From assembly GCA_000996085.1 (NCBI GenBank), contig LBYG01000002.1, positions 1 through 58,820 on the forward strand: 58,820 nucleotides of DNA, given 5' to 3'. The translations under genes were made by a program, and so were the position numbers. The notes beneath the pieces were generated by a model. The model was given only the letters and a program-made list of their open reading frames with translations, was not told where the DNA came from and did not search any database. The DNA comes from Parcubacteria group bacterium GW2011_GWB1_40_14. Lineage in GTDB: Bacteria > Patescibacteriota > Minisyncoccia > Terrybacterales > GWB1-40-14. Of this stretch, positions 2,624 through 57,998 are shown one piece after another; positions within the stretch are counted from its first letter, which is position 1; every line of letters begins with the position of its first letter.

Positions 2624-4105
2624 ATGCTTAAAATTATGGATTCGAATAAGCTCACCATGACTCCGAGTAAGATCGAACGGGTCAAAGCAAAATATATTGT
2701 ACGCTTTGTTCTGGGGCTTGTTGTATCTGTTATATTAATAAATAATCTGGCAGAAGTTCTCAGCAATTCCCGCAATAAAAGCTTTTATCTCACTGCGGAT
2801 TTGGTACGCGCTATAGGCGATACGCGTGTTTATTATTTAGAGGAAGGTAAAAAGCGATGGGTAGAATCTTTTGAAAGTTTTCAAGCGCAAGGTTTTTCCT
2901 GGGATGCTGTGCGCACCATCGCTCCAGAGGAGCTGATGAGTCTGCCTGAAGGAGACAAGATAACATCTGCTTCACCGGTAATTCTTGCGGGTGAAGAAAC
3001 AAGACTTCCGGATCTTGTACCGCTATCCGCAGAAGAAATTCAATATGATACTTTAAATGGCAGAAAAATACTGCGTTTTACTTCTGTATTTTTAAATCAA
3101 GGGGGCGGATTTCTTGAAGTTGTAGCAAAACCCCTTACTTTATCAACAGATGCATTAAAAGAAGTATTTCAACGAGTAGTTAACACAAACGGAACGGAAC
3201 GTTTGCGCCTTACCGGTTATTTTCTCTGGCACGCCATGCACGGGCATTATCATGTTACTAATGTTATGGGTTATATGTTGGAGCCGGCAGATTCAAAAGG
3301 CACAGTTATATCCGCAAAAGAGAAAGTTAGTTTTTGTTTGCGTGACGATCGTATTGAAAATAGTTCTGTTTCCGCCGCAACGAGAACTTTCAGTACATGC
3401 ACCAGCACACGTCAAGGAGTTTCTGTCGGATGGGCGGATGTGTATAGTTATTCACTTCCGGACCAATATCTTGACGTACATGGTTTAACACCCGCTACGT
3501 ACCGTCTTCTTCTGGACAGTAATCCAAAAGGATCCATATTGGAGAATAGATTAGATAACAACCGGAGTATTGTGATTGCGTATATGGATCCTGCAAACAA
3601 TATATTTAATGTTTTGGGTAAGGCAGTACCCTTGCCGGGATTTTCTTCATTTCCTGACGGTACTACAATAAGATCGCAAAGCGATAACGTTGCCTATGTA
3701 ATGTTCCATAATAAAAAGCGTTTGTTTCCTCCGGGAATCAGCACCACAACAAGAGGCATTGTATTGCCAAACAGCATAATTGAAACAATATTTACAAATA
3801 ATCTAATAAAAAATTCTAACGGTGTGATATATGCGCTTAACGATAAAGGTTACAGACGTCTATTTCCTTCGCCTGATGCGTATAATTCATATGGATTTAA
3901 TTTTGCCGATATCGCGTTAATTTCAGAACATGAACTTGTATTATACCCTGAAGCAAAATATATTCGTCAGACAGGAAGCGATATTATATATGAAATTAGC
4001 GGCAATACTAAGAAAATCGTAAATAATATTTCAGCAATATCGCCTGATATGGTTCATGTTATAAATATAATAGATTTTAATTCATATACTACAGTAGCCA
4101 ATTAA
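2624..4105 (+). CDS. Membrane-anchored lysyl-oxidase-like copper amine oxidase domain protein
   Basis: LOX signatures: WHAMHGHYH (compare WHSCHQHYH), KVSFCLRD (compare KASFCLED), and QGVSVGWADVYSYSLPDQYLDV (compare [22 protein letters not shown]). N-terminal TM helix. Flanked by ~40-aa repeat modules. Confidence 0.75.
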   Translation: MLKIMDSNKLTMTPSKIERVKAKYIVRFVLGLVVSVILINNLAEVLSNSRNKSFYLTADLVRAIGDTRVYYLEEGKKRWVESFESFQAQGFSWDAVRTIAPEELMSLPEGDKITSASPVILAGEETRLPDLVPLSAEEIQYDTLNGRKILRFTSVFLNQGGGFLEVVAKPLTLSTDALKEVFQRVVNTNGTERLRLTGYFLWHAMHGHYHVTNVMGYMLEPADSKGTVISAKEKVSFCLRDDRIENSSVSAATRTFSTCTSTRQGVSVGWADVYSYSLPDQYLDVHGLTPATYRLLLDSNPKGSILENRLDNNRSIVIAYMDPANNIFNVLGKAVPLPGFSSFPDGTTIRSQSDNVAYVMFHNKKRLFPPGISTTTRGIVLPNSIIETIFTNNLIKNSNGVIYALNDKGYRRLFPSPDAYNSYGFNFADIALISEHELVLYPEAKYIRQTGSDIIYEISGNTKKIVNNISAISPDMVHVINIIDFNSYTTVAN

Positions 4106-4112
4106 TTTTATG

Positions 4113-4250
4113 CCAGGTAGTGAAAATTCGACTGTTCGCTAAGCGAACAAGGCTACTTAGAGCAATATTATAGTTTTAATCTATTACTTTTTAAATATTA
4201 ACTATTAGAAAGAAGTTCGATAGTTTGAATGTCGAATTTCTACTACCTGG
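4113..4250 (+). repeat. Inverted-arm element, family 1, copy A (between TATG flanks)
   Basis: Arms CCAGGTAGTGAAAATTCGAC and GTCGAATTTCTACTACCTGG. Hairpin GTTCGC-taa-GCGAAC. TATG at 4109-4112 and 4251-4254. Confidence 0.8.
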
Positions 4251-4251
4251 T

Positions 4252-4971
4252 ATGGAGTTTGATATTTTCAAAAAATATCCCAACTTAAAATACGGTATTT
4301 CAAAAAAGAGGCACGGTTCGTTAAAAAAAATTACCGCAGATTTTAATTCTGCGGATATTTTTAGAAGAAATGAAAAGGATTTTTTAACCAGAGAGGGGAT
4401 TAAAGATTCAAAAATATATGAGCTCAAGCAAGTTCACGGAAATAAAGTTTTGAATTCAGAGAATATAACCGGTAACGCTACTTTTGTTGCCGATGCTTTG
4501 GTTACCAATGCACCAAATAAAGTTTTAACTATTACCGTTGCCGATTGTTATCCAATTTATCTTTTTGATCCTACCCGCAAGATCGTTGCCATTGCTCACG
4601 CGGGTTGGCGGGGCATAACGAAAGATATTTTATGCAATGTTATAGATTATTTTGTTTTAAAGTTTTCTTCTGATCCGCAAGATATTTTAGTCGGCATAGG
4701 TCCCGGGCTGGGCAAATGCCATTTTGAGGTCAAGGAAGATGTTTTGGACAATTTTACTGCATATCCTGAAGAAATCGAACATAAAAATGGGAAAATTTTC
4801 GTTGATTTGCCCGCTATTTTGGAGAAAAAAATGCTTGAACGAGGGTTAAAGCGGGAAAATATAGAATTTTCCGGTTTGTGTACTTATTGCGAGAACGGAA
4901 AATTTTTTTCCCGGCGCAGAGATAAGAATTCCGACGAGGTAATGATGGCTTATATTGGAATGACCGTTTAA
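4252..4971 (+). CDS. pgeF: Peptidoglycan editing factor PgeF / YfiH (DUF152, laccase-domain) protein
   Basis: Motifs AHAGWRG, CHFEV and CTYC..FFSRRRD. ATG 4252 is preferred over the TTG at 4225, which lies inside the repeat arm. Confidence 0.85.
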   Translation: MEFDIFKKYPNLKYGISKKRHGSLKKITADFNSADIFRRNEKDFLTREGIKDSKIYELKQVHGNKVLNSENITGNATFVADALVTNAPNKVLTITVADCYPIYLFDPTRKIVAIAHAGWRGITKDILCNVIDYFVLKFSSDPQDILVGIGPGLGKCHFEVKEDVLDNFTAYPEEIEHKNGKIFVDLPAILEKKMLERGLKRENIEFSGLCTYCENGKFFSRRRDKNSDEVMMAYIGMTV

Positions 4972-19865: not shown

Positions 19866-19932
19866 GCCGTGGTTGTCCCTGAGCAAAGCGAAGGATACAA
19901 CTACGTGCATCCTGAGCGAAGTCGAAGGATTA
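19863..19932 (-). promoter_or_regulatory. Two-hairpin start-codon-proximal element, dnaB copy
   Basis: Homologous to 23564-23640 and 24128-24196, with compensatory substitutions in both stems. Confidence 0.5.
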
Positions 19933-20016
19933 CTTTAATTATTACCAGCTTATCGTTTAAAACCAACACAGGCAATGGTGGATAAAGTGGAGAAAATGTG
20001 GATTGTTGATAGTAGA

Positions 20017-24105: not shown

Positions 24106-24127
24106 ATAATTTTATCTAATTCTAGTA

Positions 24128-24196
24128 ATCCCTCGACTTCGCTCGGGATGCACATTGTTGCAACCGCTCTCGAAGTTCGCGGGCAACAATGGCATG
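24128..24196 (+). promoter_or_regulatory. Two-hairpin start-codon-proximal element, dnaK copy
   Basis: H1 is ATCCC..GGGAT. H2 is CATTGTTGC..GCAACAATG and ends 2 nt before the dnaK ATG at 24194. Confidence 0.5.
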
Positions 24197-26098
24197 TCAA
24201 AAGTATTAGGTATCGATCTTGGCACAACCAATTCTGCTATGGCGGTAATGGAAAATGGAGAGCCTAAGATTCTAGAAAATTCTGAAGGCGTAAGAACCAC
24301 TCCTTCTATTGTTTCTATAAATAAATCCGGCGAAAGAGCTGTTGGTGTTTTAGCTAAGCGTCAGGCTGTGACTAACGCTGAAAACACAATTTTTTCAGCT
24401 AAAAGACTCATCGGCAGGAGGTTTTCGGATATTGAAGTTCAAAGAGATAAAGAATGGCTTCCTTATACTATTCGTGAATCATCGAACGGTGGAGTTGAAA
24501 TAAAAATGGGAGATAAGTGGTATGCTCCTCAGGAAATCTCCGCAATGATTTTGTCGAAACTCAAAGCTAACGCTGAAGCAAGATTAGGAACCACAATAAC
24601 CGATGCGGTTATCACTGTACCGGCTTATTTTGATGATGCTCAAAGAAAATCAACTAAGGAAGCGGGAGAAATTGCAGGTTTTAATGTTAGACGGATAATT
24701 AATGAGCCCACAGCCGCTGCTTTGGCATATGGATTAGAAAAGAAAAAGAATGAAAAAATTGTAGTTTATGATTTTGGCGGAGGAACATTTGATGTTTCGG
24801 TCCTTGAAATTTCTGAAAATACCGTTGAAGTTAAAGCCACAGGCGGTGATACGCATTTGGGCGGAGACGATCTTGATAAGAAGATTATTGGCTGGCTGAT
24901 TGATGAATTTAAAAAAGATCAGGGTATAGATCTATCTAAAGACAAATTAGCCTTACAACGACTCAAAGAAGGAGCTGAACGCGCCAAACTTGAACTCTCG
25001 AGTACAAATGAAACCGAAATCAATATACCTTTTATTACTTCGGACGCTCAGGGACCGAAACATCTTTTGCTTAAATTAAGTCGCGCTCAATTTGAAGAAT
25101 TGGTTCATGATTATATAGAGAGATCCGTACAGATAGTAAAAGATGTCGTTGGTGAAGCTAAATTTTCATTATCGGATATTAATGAAGTGGTAATGGTTGG
25201 TGGGCAGACTAGAATGCCGGCCATTCAAGAGGCGGTAGGCAAACTTTTTGGCAAGGAGCCTCATATGGGGATTAATCCTGATGAGGTTGTGGCTATTGGA
25301 GCTGCTGCGCAAGGTGGTATTATGGAAGGAGAGGTACACGATGTTCTTTTACTCGATGTTACACCCTTATCTTTGGGCATTGAAACGTTGGGTAACGTGA
25401 TGACCCCTATTATTGAGAAAAATACAACGATTCCTGTCTCAAAAGCCCAAGTTTTTTCAACTGCAGCCGATAATCAACCCTCTGTAGAGATACATGTTTT
25501 GCAGGGCGAAAGAACATTAGCCAACGACAATAAAACATTGGCCAGATTCATACTGGATGGTCTTCCGCCTTCTCCAAGAGGGGTGCCTCAAGTTGAAGTT
25601 ACATTTGATATTGATGCTAACGGTATTTTGAACGTTACAGCTAAGGATAAAGCTACAGGTAAGGCTCAAACTGTTCGTGTAGAAGCATCAACCGGACTAT
25701 CAAAAGAAGAGGTAGAAAGAATGAAAAAAGATGCAGAAATGCACGCAGATGAAGACCGCAAAAAGAAGGAAACTGTTGAAGCTCGTAATACATCAGACGC
25801 ACTGATATATTCTACAGAACGTGTTTTGCGTGAAAATTCCGAAAAAATTTCTCAGGATATCCGAAAAGATGTCGAAGATAAATTAAAAACCTTGAAAGAG
25901 GTTAAAGATAAAGATGATATAGCTGCAATTCGAAGAGCTATGGAAGATCTATCCCAAGCCGCTCAAAAAATCGGCTCTACGTTGTATAGCAAAGAGCAGA
26001 GCGCGGGACCTCAAGATTCTTCGCAGAGTGATTCAGCTGAGAAGCCTGCCGATGTTGAAGACGGGCAAACCGAAGAGTCAGGAGACAATAAAGCATAA
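24194..26098 (+). CDS. dnaK: Chaperone DnaK (Hsp70)
   Basis: [19 protein letters not shown] and full-length Hsp70. Start at [10 protein letters not shown]. Confidence 0.95.
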
Positions 26099-26104
26099 AT
26101 TATG

Positions 26105-26241
26105 CCAGGTAGTGAAATTCGACCGTTCCGCTAAAAGCGGAACAAAAGTATCTGGCAAACAATACAATAAAATTAATAAATAAAAGTTTAAACACGAAAT
26201 TCGTTAATTAAAAATGTAAAAGTCGAATTTCTACTACCTGG
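26105..26241 (+). repeat. Inverted-arm element, family 1, copy B
   Basis: Arms CCAGGTAGTGAAATTCGAC and GTCGAATTTCTACTACCTGG. Hairpin GTTCCGC-taaaa-GCGGAAC. TATG flanks at 26101-26104 and 26242-26245. Confidence 0.8.
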
Positions 26242-26242
26242 T

Positions 26243-27202
26243 ATGAATAAGATAAAAGCTATTTTTCCTGTTTTTGTTTTAATGGCATTGTTTGTTTTGA
26301 CCATGGTGGGTGTTTGGACCGCGGCAGGACAAATGTTATCGGGCGACGGAGGAAGAACATTGAATTTATTCGGTTTTGAATTGCCGGTCACTTCTTTTGT
26401 ATCCGTATATACTTTAATTGTAGTTTCAGCTGTATTTTATTCTCTTATCGTGTTAGTTGAGGGTAAACTTATTTTTATAGCGATTGGTTCTTTGGCGGCG
26501 CTAATTCTATCTTTGCCGATTCTTTTTGGTCAGGTGTCGATATATATAATAGCTATTATCCCGTGTTTAGGTTTGTGGATATTTTCTGCGTGGCGCATGA
26601 AAGAAATTATTAAGGATTTGCTGCCGTGGAAACCTTCTTGGGCTTTACATGCCGGGCTACCGCTTTATTTTACAGCTTTAAGTATTATTTTTACGGCTGC
26701 GATATTGGCCTCTCCCTCTGCCGAAAAGTTTTTAAGCGAGCCACTACCCAAAGAGGTGGTATTTTTTGGTTTATCTTATATTGAAAAACCCATTGAAAGG
26801 TTTGCGAATCTTAATATAAATCATACGGTTGACCAAGCTATAGAAATTTCAAGTGAAGGCAAAATTAAAGATCCTCGGCTTTTGGCGCAAGCTCGCGCGG
26901 AACTTAGTAAATCTTTGGGAGCGGTTCTTTCAGGTGAAGAGACCGTTAAAGATGTTATTTTTCAGATAGTAAATCGAGAGATCAATAAAGTAAAAGATCA
27001 GGCGGGGGATCTTTTCTTGATTATTTTTGCAGTAAGCTCATTTTTTATGTTTCAACTTTTGGCTTGGCCTGCAAAAATTATTGCCAATATGGCTACACGA
27101 TTTATGCTATTTACATTTGAGGCCGGCGGAGTAATAGTTGTTGAAGACAGGTCTGCGAGAAAATATTTCGCGCATTGGAAATCTTCTCCGCCAATCATAT
27201 AA
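26243..27202 (+). CDS. Polytopic membrane protein of unknown function inserted between dnaK and dnaJ
   Basis: Multiple hydrophobic helices. No recognised family. Confidence 0.6.
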   Translation: MNKIKAIFPVFVLMALFVLTMVGVWTAAGQMLSGDGGRTLNLFGFELPVTSFVSVYTLIVVSAVFYSLIVLVEGKLIFIAIGSLAALILSLPILFGQVSIYIIAIIPCLGLWIFSAWRMKEIIKDLLPWKPSWALHAGLPLYFTALSIIFTAAILASPSAEKFLSEPLPKEVVFFGLSYIEKPIERFANLNINHTVDQAIEISSEGKIKDPRLLAQARAELSKSLGAVLSGEETVKDVIFQIVNREINKVKDQAGDLFLIIFAVSSFFMFQLLAWPAKIIANMATRFMLFTFEAGGVIVVEDRSARKYFAHWKSSPPII

Positions 27203-29239: not shown

Positions 29240-29312
29240 GCCCCCATAGCTCAATTGGCAGAGCAGCTCCCTTTTAAGGAGAAGGTTGAAGGTTCGATTC
29301 CTTCTGGGGGCA
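29240..29312 (+). tRNA. tRNA-Lys (anticodon UUU)
   Basis: Cloverleaf. Acceptor GCCCCCA/TGGGGGC. D arm GCTC-AATTGGCA-GAGC. Anticodon loop CTTTTAA. T arm GAAGG-TTCGATT-CCTTC. No encoded CCA. Confidence 0.9.
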
Positions 29313-49625: not shown

Positions 49626-49750
49626 ACCCTGTTAGAAGTTTGCGGGAGTTTAGTAAAGGACGATATAGTTAAAGTAATAATCATCTATTAAAATAGAGAA
49701 AAAGACGTAGTCTTTTTCTAATTGATTTACTCGCAAAGTTCTAACGGGGT
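49626..49750. repeat. Inverted-arm element, family 2, copy X4
   Basis: Arms ACCCTGTTAGAAGTTTGCG and CGCAAAGTTCTAACGGGGT. Internal hairpin AGAAAAAGAC-gta-GTCTTTTTCT at 49696-49718. Confidence 0.7.
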
Positions 49751-49777
49751 TGACAGTAAAGGCCTAAATATGATAAT
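49750..49777 (+). promoter_or_regulatory. Candidate promoter TTGACA-N16-GATAAT upstream of infA
   Basis: Hexamers at 49750-49755 and 49772-49777. The -35 abuts the right arm of X4. Confidence 0.4.
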
Positions 49778-49780
49778 CTC

Positions 49781-49809
49781 GGTTTTGTTGCCTCTTTGGC
49801 AGCAAAACC
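49781..49809 (+). terminator. 12-bp hairpin GGTTTTGTTGCC-N5-GGCAGCAAAACC followed by ATTTTATTTATTT
   Basis: Shape of an intrinsic terminator. Its position just after the candidate promoter makes the role ambiguous. Confidence 0.45.
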
Positions 49810-49851: not shown

Positions 49852-50064
49852 ATGGGAGTTAAAGGTTTACGTAAGTCCGGAATGGTGGCAGAAGCATTAC
49901 CTGCGACACTTTTTAAAGTTTTACTGGATGATGGAACACATATTTTGGCGCATCTTTCCGGTAAAATGCGCGTAAATTTTATAAGAATTATGCCAGGCGA
50001 CCGGGTTGTAGTAGAAATGCCCGACGAGAATTCTGCTCGTGGTCGTATTGTTTACCGCGAATAA
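49852..50064 (+). CDS. infA: Translation initiation factor IF-1
   Basis: VAEALPATLFKVLLDDGTHILAHLSGKMRVNFIRIMPGDRVVVEM..RGRIVYR. Confidence 0.9.
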   Translation: MGVKGLRKSGMVAEALPATLFKVLLDDGTHILAHLSGKMRVNFIRIMPGDRVVVEMPDENSARGRIVYRE

Positions 50065-50071
50065 ATCTATG

Positions 50072-50199
50072 CCAGGTAGTGAAAATTCGACCGTTTCGCG
50101 TAGCGAAACAAAATTATCTGGTAATTTGTTAAAGTTAGTATTATATTTTTATCAAAAAGTTCGATGATTAAGTTTTAAAGTCGAATTTCTACTACCTGG
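50072..50199 (+). repeat. Inverted-arm element, family 1, copy C
   Basis: Arms CCAGGTAGTGAAAATTCGAC and GTCGAATTTCTACTACCTGG. Hairpin GTTTCGC-gta-GCGAAAC. TATG flanks at 50068-50071 and 50200-50203. Confidence 0.8.
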
Positions 50200-50200
50200 T

Positions 50201-50314
50201 ATGAAAGTAAGAGCATCAGTTAAAAAAATGTGTCGAGATTGCAAAATCGTCCGAAGAAGGGGACGAGTTGCTGTTATTTGCAAGAATCCTAAACATAAAC
50301 AACGACAAGGATAA
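50201..50314 (+). CDS. rpmJ: Ribosomal protein L36 (not in the ORF track because it is under 60 aa)
   Basis: Hand translation: [37 protein letters not shown]. Confidence 0.9.
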
Positions 50315-50429
50315 ACGACCTTATAGCCTAAGCTAAAAAGTAAAAACGAAAAATTAAAAAGTAATGTTAGTCGCCTTCGACGACTCATCAAAATTTTACA
50401 CTTTTCATTTTAAATTTTAAATTTGAAAC

Positions 50430-56943: not shown

Positions 56944-57998
56944 ATGTTTATTAAGAAAATAGGAATAGACCTCGGAACAACCAATTCGTTAGTATTTGTC
57001 CCCGGACGCGGGATCATTTTGAATGAACCTACGGTGGTTGCTATCTCCACATCAGATAATACTGTTTTGGCTGTTGGCGCTGAGGCAAAAGATATGATCG
57101 GTCGCACTCCAGATACTATAGTTGCTCATCGTCCTATGAAAGACGGAGTGATTTCGGATTATCGTATCACGGCAGCCATGCTTAGATATTTTATAGGTAA
57201 GGCAACGGGCTCTTTTAGGATTTTGAGACCGGACGTAATGGTTTCAGTTCCTGCCGGTTTAGGATTTTGAGACCGGACGTAATGGTTTCAGTTCCTGCCG
57301 GTATTACCTCTACAGAACGTCGAGCAGTTACCGAAGCTGCGGTACATGCCGGAGCCAAAGGAGCCTATGTCGTTAAAGAGCCCATATTGGCTGCTATAGG
57401 GGCTGGTTTGCCTATTAATTCAGCATCTGGAAATATGATCGTAAATATCGGTGGCGGTACAAGTGAAGTGGCGGTCATAGCATTGGGAGGAATAGTTAGT
57501 TGGGCTTCGGTTCGTGTTGCGGGAAATAAGATCGATCATGCCATAACCGACTATATTAAGAAAAAACATAATTTGGCTATAGGTGAGCGTACCGCCGAGT
57601 ATATTAAAGTAACCATAGGCAGCGCAGTATCTGAGAAAGGAAAAGAAGATAGTATGGAGATCCGTGGTCGGGATTTATTAAACGGTTTGCCTCGTACTAT
57701 AGTGATCAAATCAAGTGAAATTACTGATGCGATAGCCGAAACCCTTCGTGAAATAATTCAAGCAGTTAAAGCTGTTTTACGGGAAACTCCTCCTGAATTA
57801 GCCGCAGATATAATAGAACGCGGCATGACTATTTCAGGCGGCACTGCGCTTTTACGTAATTTAGACCAGCTAATAACCTCATCTACAGGCGTTCAGGCTA
57901 TAGTTGCAGAAGAGCCGCTGCTTTGTGTCGCAAAAGGAACGGGTGTTGCCCTGGAAAACTTAGATGTTTATAAAAAGAGTATAATTACCAGAAAATAG
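56944..57998 (+). pseudogene. mreB: Rod-shape protein MreB interrupted by a 44-bp tandem duplication
   Basis: GIDLGTTNS.. and ..NIGGGTSEVAVI... The ORFs 56944..57270 and 57267..57998 rejoin into one 336-aa MreB if one 44-bp unit is removed. Confidence 0.85.
57214..57301 (+). repeat. Perfect 44-bp tandem duplication (2 units)
   Basis: TTTAGGATTTTGAGACCGGACGTAATGGTTTCAGTTCCTGCCGG at 57214-57257 and again at 57258-57301. Confidence 0.95.

Follow-up and report, generated by a model that had tools for sequence, protein, structure and literature searches.

A palindromic element at the rpmJ start codon of a Terrybacterales genome and a start-codon-associated family with a GIY-YIG nuclease-coding form

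In the 58,820-nt stretch of Parcubacteria group bacterium GW2011_GWB1_40_14 analyzed here (contig LBYG01000002.1, hereafter the window), a 128-nt palindromic element, copy C, lies between infA and rpmJ with a TATG on each side. We believe, at a probability of about 0.6, that copy C is a non-autonomous member, similar to MITEs (miniature inverted-repeat transposable elements), of a palindromic family that inserts at start codons and has a full-length form encoding a GIY-YIG nuclease. The parts of this reading differ in strength: we are practically certain that copy C is a mobile-element insertion with ATG duplication, and its derivation from the GIY-YIG element family is very probable.

Copy C at the infA-rpmJ junction

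The junction runs from the infA TAA through atc, TATG and the 128-nt element to a second TATG, which is the rpmJ start. The original prediction, made from the letters of the window, had placed infA, the atc, both TATGs, the element and the rpmJ start correctly at every coordinate (Table 1). It had also proposed that the element splits an otherwise tight junction and that relatives would present an empty site made of the stop, a few bases and one TATG. This is borne out by the closest relative, L108 (S4 93% identical; L-numbers are our labels for retrieved loci carrying the element or a related junction), in which the empty junction CGCGAATAATTTATGAAAGTC reads TAA-TT-TATG. L108 displays TAA-TT-TATG-AAAGTC and the window TAA-ATC-TATG[128 nt]TATG-AAAGTA, that is, one TATG against two, and the duplicated target is 3 or 4 bases long ((T)ATG).

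Other relatives showed that the site is polymorphic among near-identical strains. Two loci with an IF-1 identical to that of the window (L119 and L122) carried the copy C element at the same junction, while four others with the same IF-1 (L117, L118, L120 and L121; flanks 99.6-99.8% identical) displayed there a different palindromic insert of about 130 nt. Since sister strains carry this different insert while the two other copies of the window, A and B, are constant (both were found in all strain contigs examined, GCA_000993865.2 being one assembly with copy A), the infA-rpmJ junction has been hit at least twice recently. The organism is a groundwater member of the Parcubacteria related to Candidatus Terrybacteria, and the more distant Terrybacteria relatives L110 and L115 presented unrelated spacers of 27 and 20 nt. 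An unrelated spacer of similar length in all relatives, together with transcription of rpmJ from a distant promoter of its own, had been named in advance as the refuting finding; the sister-strain insert resembles it literally, but is overridden by the empty site of L108. The alternative insert (L117:3214-3345, TAATT-TA[GCCGACACGAAATACGAATGCG...CGCATTGAGATTTAGCATCGACTC]TA-TGAAAG, possibly with a TA duplication) was unique among all fetched loci and is absent from the window.

Homology between copies starts at position 50068 and stops at 50203. The terminal repeats of copy C are 20 nt long and complementary at 18 of the 20 positions, and five occurrences of this end motif were counted in the window, whereas 100 shuffles gave none. 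The sense-strand RNAs of copies A, B and C were predicted to fold at -46 to -50 kcal/mol (z = -7.4 to -9.2), and their inner hairpin stems differ with compensatory changes (GTTCGC, GTTCCGC and GTTTCGC, respectively). The internal YCTGGYA motif is a repeat of the outer part of the right end and could pair with the left end, and the TTCGAT of copy C is the counterpart of the GTCGAAAAA repeat located just inside the right end of the full-length elements. As had been claimed, the left ATG opens a mini-open reading frame (mini-ORF) of 32 codons in C and of 10 in both A and B. The accompanying statement that these frames diverge after codon 5 is right for B, in which one A of the left end is deleted, but wrong for A compared with C, which are identical through codon 9 (MPGSENSTV). 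The mini-ORF is not conserved as a peptide, in agreement with the original prediction, and only the part encoded by the inverted end is kept.

Table 1. Features of copy C and of the other copies in the window (positions of the window)
Feature	Position	Strand	Basis or remark
infA (IF-1, 70 aa)	49852-50064	+	ORF list; Pfam eIF-1a, E = 2.1e-21; stop TAA 50062-50064
atc between infA stop and left TATG	50065-50067	+	sequence
Left (T)ATG of the duplicated target	50068-50071	+	original rpmJ start position; today the first codon of the relic mini-ORF
Relic mini-ORF, 32 codons (MPGSENSTVSRSETKLSGNLLKLVLYFYQKVR)	50069-50167	+	stop TGA 50165-50167
Element of copy C, 128 nt	50072-50199	+	sequence
Left terminal inverted repeat CCAGGTAGTGAAAATTCGAC	50072-50091	+	encodes PGSENST in full-length relatives
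G+C-rich hairpin GTTTCGC-GTA-GCGAAAC, then A-run	50093-50109	+	directly after left end
Internal motif ATCTGGTA (family consensus YCTGGYA)	50116-50123	+	read from aligned copies
Subterminal TTCGAT, repeating in part the inner segment of the ends	50160-50165	+	aligned copies
Right terminal inverted repeat GTCGAATTTCTACTACCTGG	50180-50199	+	pairs with left end save a tandem G.T + A.C mismatch
Right (T)ATG	50200-50203	+	ATG 50201-50203 is the working rpmJ start codon
rpmJ (ribosomal protein L36, 37 aa)	50201-50314	+	Pfam Ribosomal_L36, E = 8.7e-22
Copy A: TATG + 138-nt element (4113-4250) + TATG	4109-4254	+	end motif, ORFs, Pfam
Copy B: TATG + 137-nt element (26105-26241) + TATG	26101-26245	+	end motif, ORFs, Pfam

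A family of elements located at start codons

A scan for exact matches of the end motif, with one genome per species, yielded at least 107 genome stretches, almost all of them in metagenome-assembled genomes of Patescibacteria of many classes. Among the matches listed, the hosts included Portnoy-, Gottesman-, Yanofsky-, Lipton-, Terry- and Nealsonbacteria, Saccharimonadales and others, and singletons from outside the candidate phyla radiation (CPR) were about as many as expected by chance. In three groundwater metagenomes, contig depth over both inverted ends reached 560-1280x, as compared to about 15x in the flanks. The IMG/VR viral contigs gave zero matches to the end motif, so that there is no sign of a phage vector. 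Similarly, no Rfam family reached the gathering score anywhere in the window, and the E-value mode at the locus gave only chance matches to long-hairpin microRNA precursors (E = 2.3 and 5.2).

In a non-redundant set of 69 short copies, the flanks were TATG...TATG in 37, most of the remaining ones being off by one base, and the left triplet was ATG in 41 of the 52 copies that could be oriented. Three positions of the ends vary in a compensatory manner, and the tandem G.T + A.C mismatch was present in 154 of 156 non-redundant elements. A GA/AG swap at the ends was considered as a possible mark of two orientations and ruled out, the internal layout identifying it as a single mismatch in two forms. 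In 20 of 45 mid-size MITE copies, including A, B and C, a G+C-rich hairpin (free energy of -5 kcal/mol or lower) with a stem different in each case was found 2-3 nt after the left end and followed by an A-run; the mean was -5.6 kcal/mol, compared to -2.6 in shuffles (p = 5e-5).

Fifty-one of 61 elements (84%) adjoin a start codon opening at least 50 codons, whereas start-codon TATGs make up only 27% of the non-disruptive TATG sites at the same loci (binomial p = 5e-20, with availability computed on crude gene calls, ORFs of at least 80 aa). The ten downstream genes checked encode L31, S20, thioredoxin, YbaB, NDK, RecA, Sua5, a DksA-type protein, ferredoxin and SecE, and the early start of the N-terminal Pfam matches in the downstream proteins (residue 1 for L31, 3 for thioredoxin and 5 for S20) fits native start codons. 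Occupied sites were enriched in T at -1 (odds ratio 3.6, p = 1e-4) and in (C/G)C immediately downstream of the ATG (odds ratio 5.4, p = 1e-6), and therefore the preferred target is about TATG(C/G)C, which resembles the left junction of the element itself (TATG|CC). The orientation relative to the host gene is fixed: when copies were oriented by the host gene, internal similarity linked 18 same-sense pairs and one opposite pair.

A second MITE sub-family with GAATTTCGACACGC ends was observed mostly in Gottesmanbacteria-type genomes (L001, L004, L019, L028, L038, L092, L101 and L105). It carries an internal, Shine-Dalgarno-like GAAAGGAG about 50 nt ahead of the host ATG, and in several of its copies the left ATG is replaced by GGAG or AGGG.

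Full-length relatives encoding a GIY-YIG nuclease

One 314-nt copy (L051) contains within the same ends a small ORF for a GIY-YIG domain (PF01541, E = 1.2e-15), and a metagenome protein scan disclosed at least 428 relatives of this nuclease. The layout was established on 57 non-redundant elements with both ends recognized (55 of them for the flank counts). These full-length elements share with the short copies their 20-nt ends and their flanks, measure about 313-322 bp and contain a single gene for a stand-alone GIY-YIG nuclease of about 87-98 aa. Their order is (T)ATG, left end, a linker of about 7 nt (TGCGATT), an internal ATG, the ORF and its stop, 19-20 nt of right end, (T)ATG and the host gene, and the nuclease and host genes always run in the same direction. 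The distance from the stop to the end was 19-20 nt in 43 of the 57, the flanks were TATG...TATG in 31 of the 55, and the right-flank start codon opened at least 77 codons in 41 of the 55. The end variants of these elements covary (CCAGGAAGT, CCGGGTAGT, CCCAGTAGT and CCAGGCAGT). Moreover, the left, host-derived ATG shared the frame of the nuclease ORF in 45 of 57 elements (open in 43), with a predicted product starting MPGSENSTAI-MFYYVY... Since intact nuclease ORFs in L154, L177 and L187 carry ATA or ACG at the position of the internal ATG, only the flanking ATG can start them.

The 29 nuclease proteins aligned had a mean identity of 80% per column. In a profile search of solved structures, the best scores were those of the UPF0213 proteins 1zg2 (8.8e-7) and 1ywl (5.3e-5) and of SLX1 (1.2e-3), I-TevI being marginal, and by sequence the nucleases are assigned to the UPF0213/SLX1-like stand-alone GIY-YIG proteins. 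An internally deleted nuclease element, L006, has the size of a MITE. In tandem arrays, a MITE is followed by a nuclease element, or the reverse, with one shared TATG, and rare end variants in neighboring short and long elements were shared in six pairs and different in three.

A further sub-family of nuclease elements with CCGGGTAG/CTACCCGG ends (L124, L157, L171, L176 and L186) is flanked by TGGA...TGGA(C) instead of TATG. Its copies are not placed immediately at an ATG, and this suggests that the target specificity has changed.

Proposed mechanism

According to our interpretation, copy C was inserted at an rpmJ start site of the type ...TAA-NN-TATG-AAAG... with duplication of (T)ATG, so that an ATG lies at each edge and the host gene keeps a start; the element is tolerated owing to this regenerated start codon. 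In most full-length elements, the left host ATG is in frame, through the left end (MPGSENSTAI-), with the nuclease gene. This in-frame ATG and the stop 19-20 nt before the host ATG make the element appear to borrow the transcription and translation start of the host, and ribosomes would be handed back to the host gene at the regenerated ATG after the nuclease stop. Copy C has very probably lost the nuclease gene, its 32-codon mini-ORF being a remnant of that frame. The nuclease might mobilize both forms, probably by recognizing the hairpin or cruciform of the ends, and we give this role of the enzyme almost an even chance. Taken further, the family could represent an unrecognized class of prokaryotic transposable elements in which a minimal SLX1/UPF0213-type GIY-YIG nuclease, the sole protein, would act on the hairpin or cruciform of the element's ends, while the element would insert specifically at TATG(C/G)C, duplicate the ATG, capture the promoter and start of the host gene for its nuclease, and return to that gene a start codon and coupled ribosomes, with the MITEs, including copy C, as non-autonomous riders; this fuller proposal is more tentative, its chances being somewhat below even.

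Several observations weigh against these ideas, besides the crude gene calls mentioned above. The fixed orientation and the start-codon location could come in part from selection after insertion. Among linker-length variants, 4 of 16 were in frame, which is the chance level and leaves frame selection unsupported, and a single ancestral master copy, rather than selection, may lie behind the surplus of in-frame elements. The left ATG is retained in about 81% of the nuclease elements and in 79% of the MITEs, hence no better in the former. The usual MITE interior (hairpin and YCTGGYA) is not obviously derived from the nuclease ORF, and the window contains no GIY-YIG gene that could serve as a nuclease source in this genome. 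GIY-YIG enzymes are not known to transpose or to generate duplications of 3-4 nt. Finally, co-transcription of copy C with its neighbors, unmasking of the rpmJ start and processing of the RNA, discussed below, are all steps that we infer.

Alternative explanations

Copy C could be an ordinary MITE moved by a conventional transposase with a 3-4-bp (T)ATG duplication, the GIY-YIG gene being a passenger or a selfish gene that colonized the loop, and the position at start codons simply what a 90%-coding genome tolerates. Small, multicopy and equipped with inverted ends and with direct repeats on both flanks, the element is compatible with this, as is a dense genome in which infA and rpmJ are 3 nt apart when the site is empty, and the different palindromic insert of the sister strains suggests that this junction is among few permissive spots. 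However, more than 130 loci carry these ends and none was seen to be a longer form with any other gene: the only coding form observed, and this many times, is the nuclease form with its constant geometry. In addition, the availability of non-coding TATGs predicts 27% of insertions at start codons and not the 84% observed, and a non-palindromic target with a fixed orientation is unusual for symmetric DDE transposition. We consider this explanation unlikely, although it is the best placed of the alternatives.

The strong fold, the compensatory stem changes, the variable-sequence hairpin after the left end and the location at the translation start would also be expected of a cis-regulatory RNA beneficial to the host, that is, a 5'-proximal stem-loop that sets translation, coupling or mRNA stability, spread by duplication and kept by selection at the RNA level. 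The sense strand folds somewhat more stably than the antisense one (inner part, 37 copies against 15; p = 0.002), which is weak support for selection on the RNA. Against this, the downstream genes are functionally unrelated, the closest relative lacks any insert at the site and a sister strain has another one there, a selfish form that encodes a protein exists within the family, Rfam gave no match, and the covariation of the ends is equally expected from recognition at the DNA level. We regard this explanation as improbable.

An element of the IS200/IS605-PATE or REPIN/RAYT type, moving as a single strand by "peel-and-paste", would insert 3' of a TATG and bring its own right TATG with no target duplication. 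A non-palindromic target, a fixed orientation and a hairpin adjoining one end fit such a process, and so does the T ahead of the ATG, which is better kept on the right side (49 of 52 oriented copies) than on the left (39 of 52). Nevertheless, some flanks covary on both sides (TATA/TATA, TTTG/TTTG and TACG/TACG), and therefore a target duplication is favored over an element-borne end; moreover, the long terminal inverted repeats of our elements are absent from that family, and the linked gene encodes a GIY-YIG nuclease and not a Y1/HUH transposase. This origin seems to us very improbable. Lastly, translational bypass, in which the initiator tRNA, after a start at the left ATG, would hop across the hairpin and land on the right one (compare gene 60 of phage T4 and the mitochondrial byp elements), is suggested by identical take-off and landing codons around a stable hairpin, but can hardly be credited given a gap of 130-320 nt, far beyond known bypasses, full-length forms that encode a real protein across that region, and the lack of both a stop right after the take-off codon and a nascent peptide, which the gene 60 bypass requires.

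Translation of rpmJ

The host does not use Shine-Dalgarno sites: motifs of this type were found ahead of 2 of 45 genes (background, 10.6%), and TATG was present at 27 of the 45 starts. If copy C is co-transcribed with infA and rpmJ, as we suppose, a stem of about -46 kcal/mol would enclose both ATGs at its base. In the folded infA-rpmJ RNA, the computed probability of being unpaired was 0.02 for the left ATG and 0.07 for the rpmJ ATG; the latter rose to 0.58 when the left arm was held single-stranded, the value for the empty site of L108 being 0.27. Holding the left arm open mimics a ribosome that ends infA 3 nt upstream or one that translates the mini-ORF, and ribosomes of either kind would melt the left arm and expose the rpmJ ATG. 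On the basis of this modeling, translation of rpmJ by ribosome unmasking is conceivable, though we would not put it at even odds. RNase III-type processing at the stem base is also possible. The infA-rpmJ locus was not found in three small SOLiD metatranscriptomes (2-3 Mb each), and the original suggestion that the element is used at the RNA level gained no evidence from them.

Other roles for the element in expression were considered. A promoter for rpmJ carried by the element is unsupported, since the promoter scan detected no promoter-like site inside it, the nearest ones being upstream of infA and upstream of rpsM. The inner hairpin was rejected as a terminator, because the sense strand has an A-run, not a T-run, and on the other strand the order is wrong. 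Ahead of infA (start at 49852), positions 49750-49809 contain a near-consensus promoter-like site (TTGACA-16-GATAAT) followed immediately by a 12-bp hairpin and a T-run, which could be a leader or attenuator.

Relation to known elements

Copy C has all the attributes of a MITE but one: it is 128 nt long (<300 bp) and non-coding, has terminal inverted repeats and a target duplication, and belongs to many dispersed copies. A MITE would also have a longer autonomous partner that encodes its transposase; here a longer partner with the same ends exists, and its only gene encodes a GIY-YIG nuclease, which is not a known class of transposase. The Correia elements of Neisseria, the enterobacterial ERIC/IRU and the pneumococcal RUP are similar in size (100-150 nt), inverted ends, short direct repeats and copy number, as well as in being located within operon transcripts and folding into long hairpins. 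In contrast to those, which duplicate TA or have no fixed tie to coding signals, the present family lies on the start codon with (T)ATG duplicated, keeps one orientation to the gene and has a nuclease form with the same ends; membership in the Correia/ERIC type is not indicated, since the flanks are (T)ATG, the ends are CCAGGTAGTGAAAATTCGAC, and neither sequence similarity nor an Rfam match was found.

Homing systems offer another parallel. Like our elements, I-TevI and the seg/mob genes of phage T4 are selfish GIY-YIG genes located between or within essential genes, and intron-encoded GIY-YIG ORFs are often in frame from the upstream exon. Homing enzymes, however, have about 250 aa, a DNA-binding domain and one long cognate site, whereas here there is a bare domain of about 90 aa (87-102 aa) at the start codons of dozens of unrelated genes, with 20-nt inverted repeats and abundant non-coding derivatives. 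Thus, the full-length relatives have the GIY-YIG domain (PF01541) of a homing endonuclease, but not the C-terminal DNA-binding domain or the long single site. The closest solved relatives by profile, UPF0213 (BH0048, PDB 1zg2; EF2693, PDB 1ywl) and SLX1, share the minimal stand-alone domain. SLX1 cuts branched and stem-loop DNA, a specificity that fits an enzyme acting on a palindrome. For UPF0213 proteins, the open-access literature found reports neither mobility nor inverted-repeat flanks, and they differ from our nucleases in the repeat-encoded N-terminal PGSENST extension, specific to this family.

The IS200/IS605-derived PATEs and the REPIN/RAYT system are likewise small, palindromic and non-coding, with a tetranucleotide target, strand and orientation specificity and a small cognate nuclease-type gene elsewhere. 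They lack terminal inverted repeats and target duplication and need a Y1/HUH enzyme, whereas our elements have such repeats, flanks that covary on both sides and a cognate GIY-YIG gene, and hence do not belong with them. The Rickettsia palindromic elements are also palindromic repeats tolerated in or at the edge of essential genes of reduced genomes, and some short copies of our family (L056 and L090) read in frame into the host gene. Nevertheless, the Rickettsia elements insert within the coding sequence and are translated with the protein, while the present family is located at the initiation codon and regenerates the start. We found no description in the open-access literature of this family of palindromic elements that seek start codons and have a minimal GIY-YIG nuclease; it is seemingly undescribed, although this is absence of evidence only and leaves novelty unproven.

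CPR genomes are tiny and gene-dense, and an element that regenerates start codons shows how selfish DNA can multiply in them without killing the host, even inside ribosomal-protein and chaperone operons. The arrangement also represents a natural experiment on start-codon choice without Shine-Dalgarno sites. Were the GIY-YIG nuclease to mobilize these elements, an enzyme class would be added to those of prokaryotic transposable elements and a function would be provided for part of the widespread, uncharacterized UPF0213 family. There are practical consequences for annotation as well, since the elements create spurious small ORFs, and rpmJ and the adjoining elements are systematically mis-annotated. 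Indeed, rpmJ was omitted by the gene callers in every relative locus examined (L108, L110 and L114-L121), and in L111 and L113 spurious minus-strand ORFs were placed across the junction.

Other copies and repeats in the window

Copy A is bordered upstream by a lysyl-oxidase-like gene (stop 4103-4105) and downstream by a Cu-oxidase_4 gene (ATG 4252), and copy B by dnaK (stop 26096-26098) and a gene for a 319-aa protein (ATG 26243), respectively. In both, the upstream stop is 2-3 nt ahead of the left TATG and the right ATG starts the next gene. An integron attC nature was rejected, since the copies, located between core genes, are spaced by 22-24 kb and form no array, and an integrase is lacking. 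A scan of the window for tRNA and tmRNA genes gave only a tRNA-Lys at 29240, irrelevant to the element.

Downstream of rpmJ, the spacer to rpsM (50315-50429) has 115 nt, compared to about 100 nt in the Terrybacteria locus L110 and 11 nt in L108. Just before the rpsM ATG, an AT-rich TTTTAAATTTTAAATTTGAAAC coincided with a peak of contig depth (50392-50435; 620-2330x, against about 15x) in groundwater metagenomes, due either to a motif that is very common or to low sequence complexity.

Two other repeats were noticed. A 49-nt inverted repeat, 84% complementary, occupies positions 19893-19941 and 24117-24165; one arm overlaps the dnaB start (minus strand) and the other is located between grpE and dnaK in the hrcA-grpE-dnaK-dnaJ cluster. 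It contains the hairpin ATCCCTCGACTTCGCTCGGGAT and looks like another repeated intergenic element. Finally, mreB (56944-57998) is split into two ORFs, matching positions 2-103 and 93-325 of the MreB Pfam profile, by a perfect 44-nt tandem duplication (repeat 57214-57301), which is either a frameshifting duplication or an assembly artefact.

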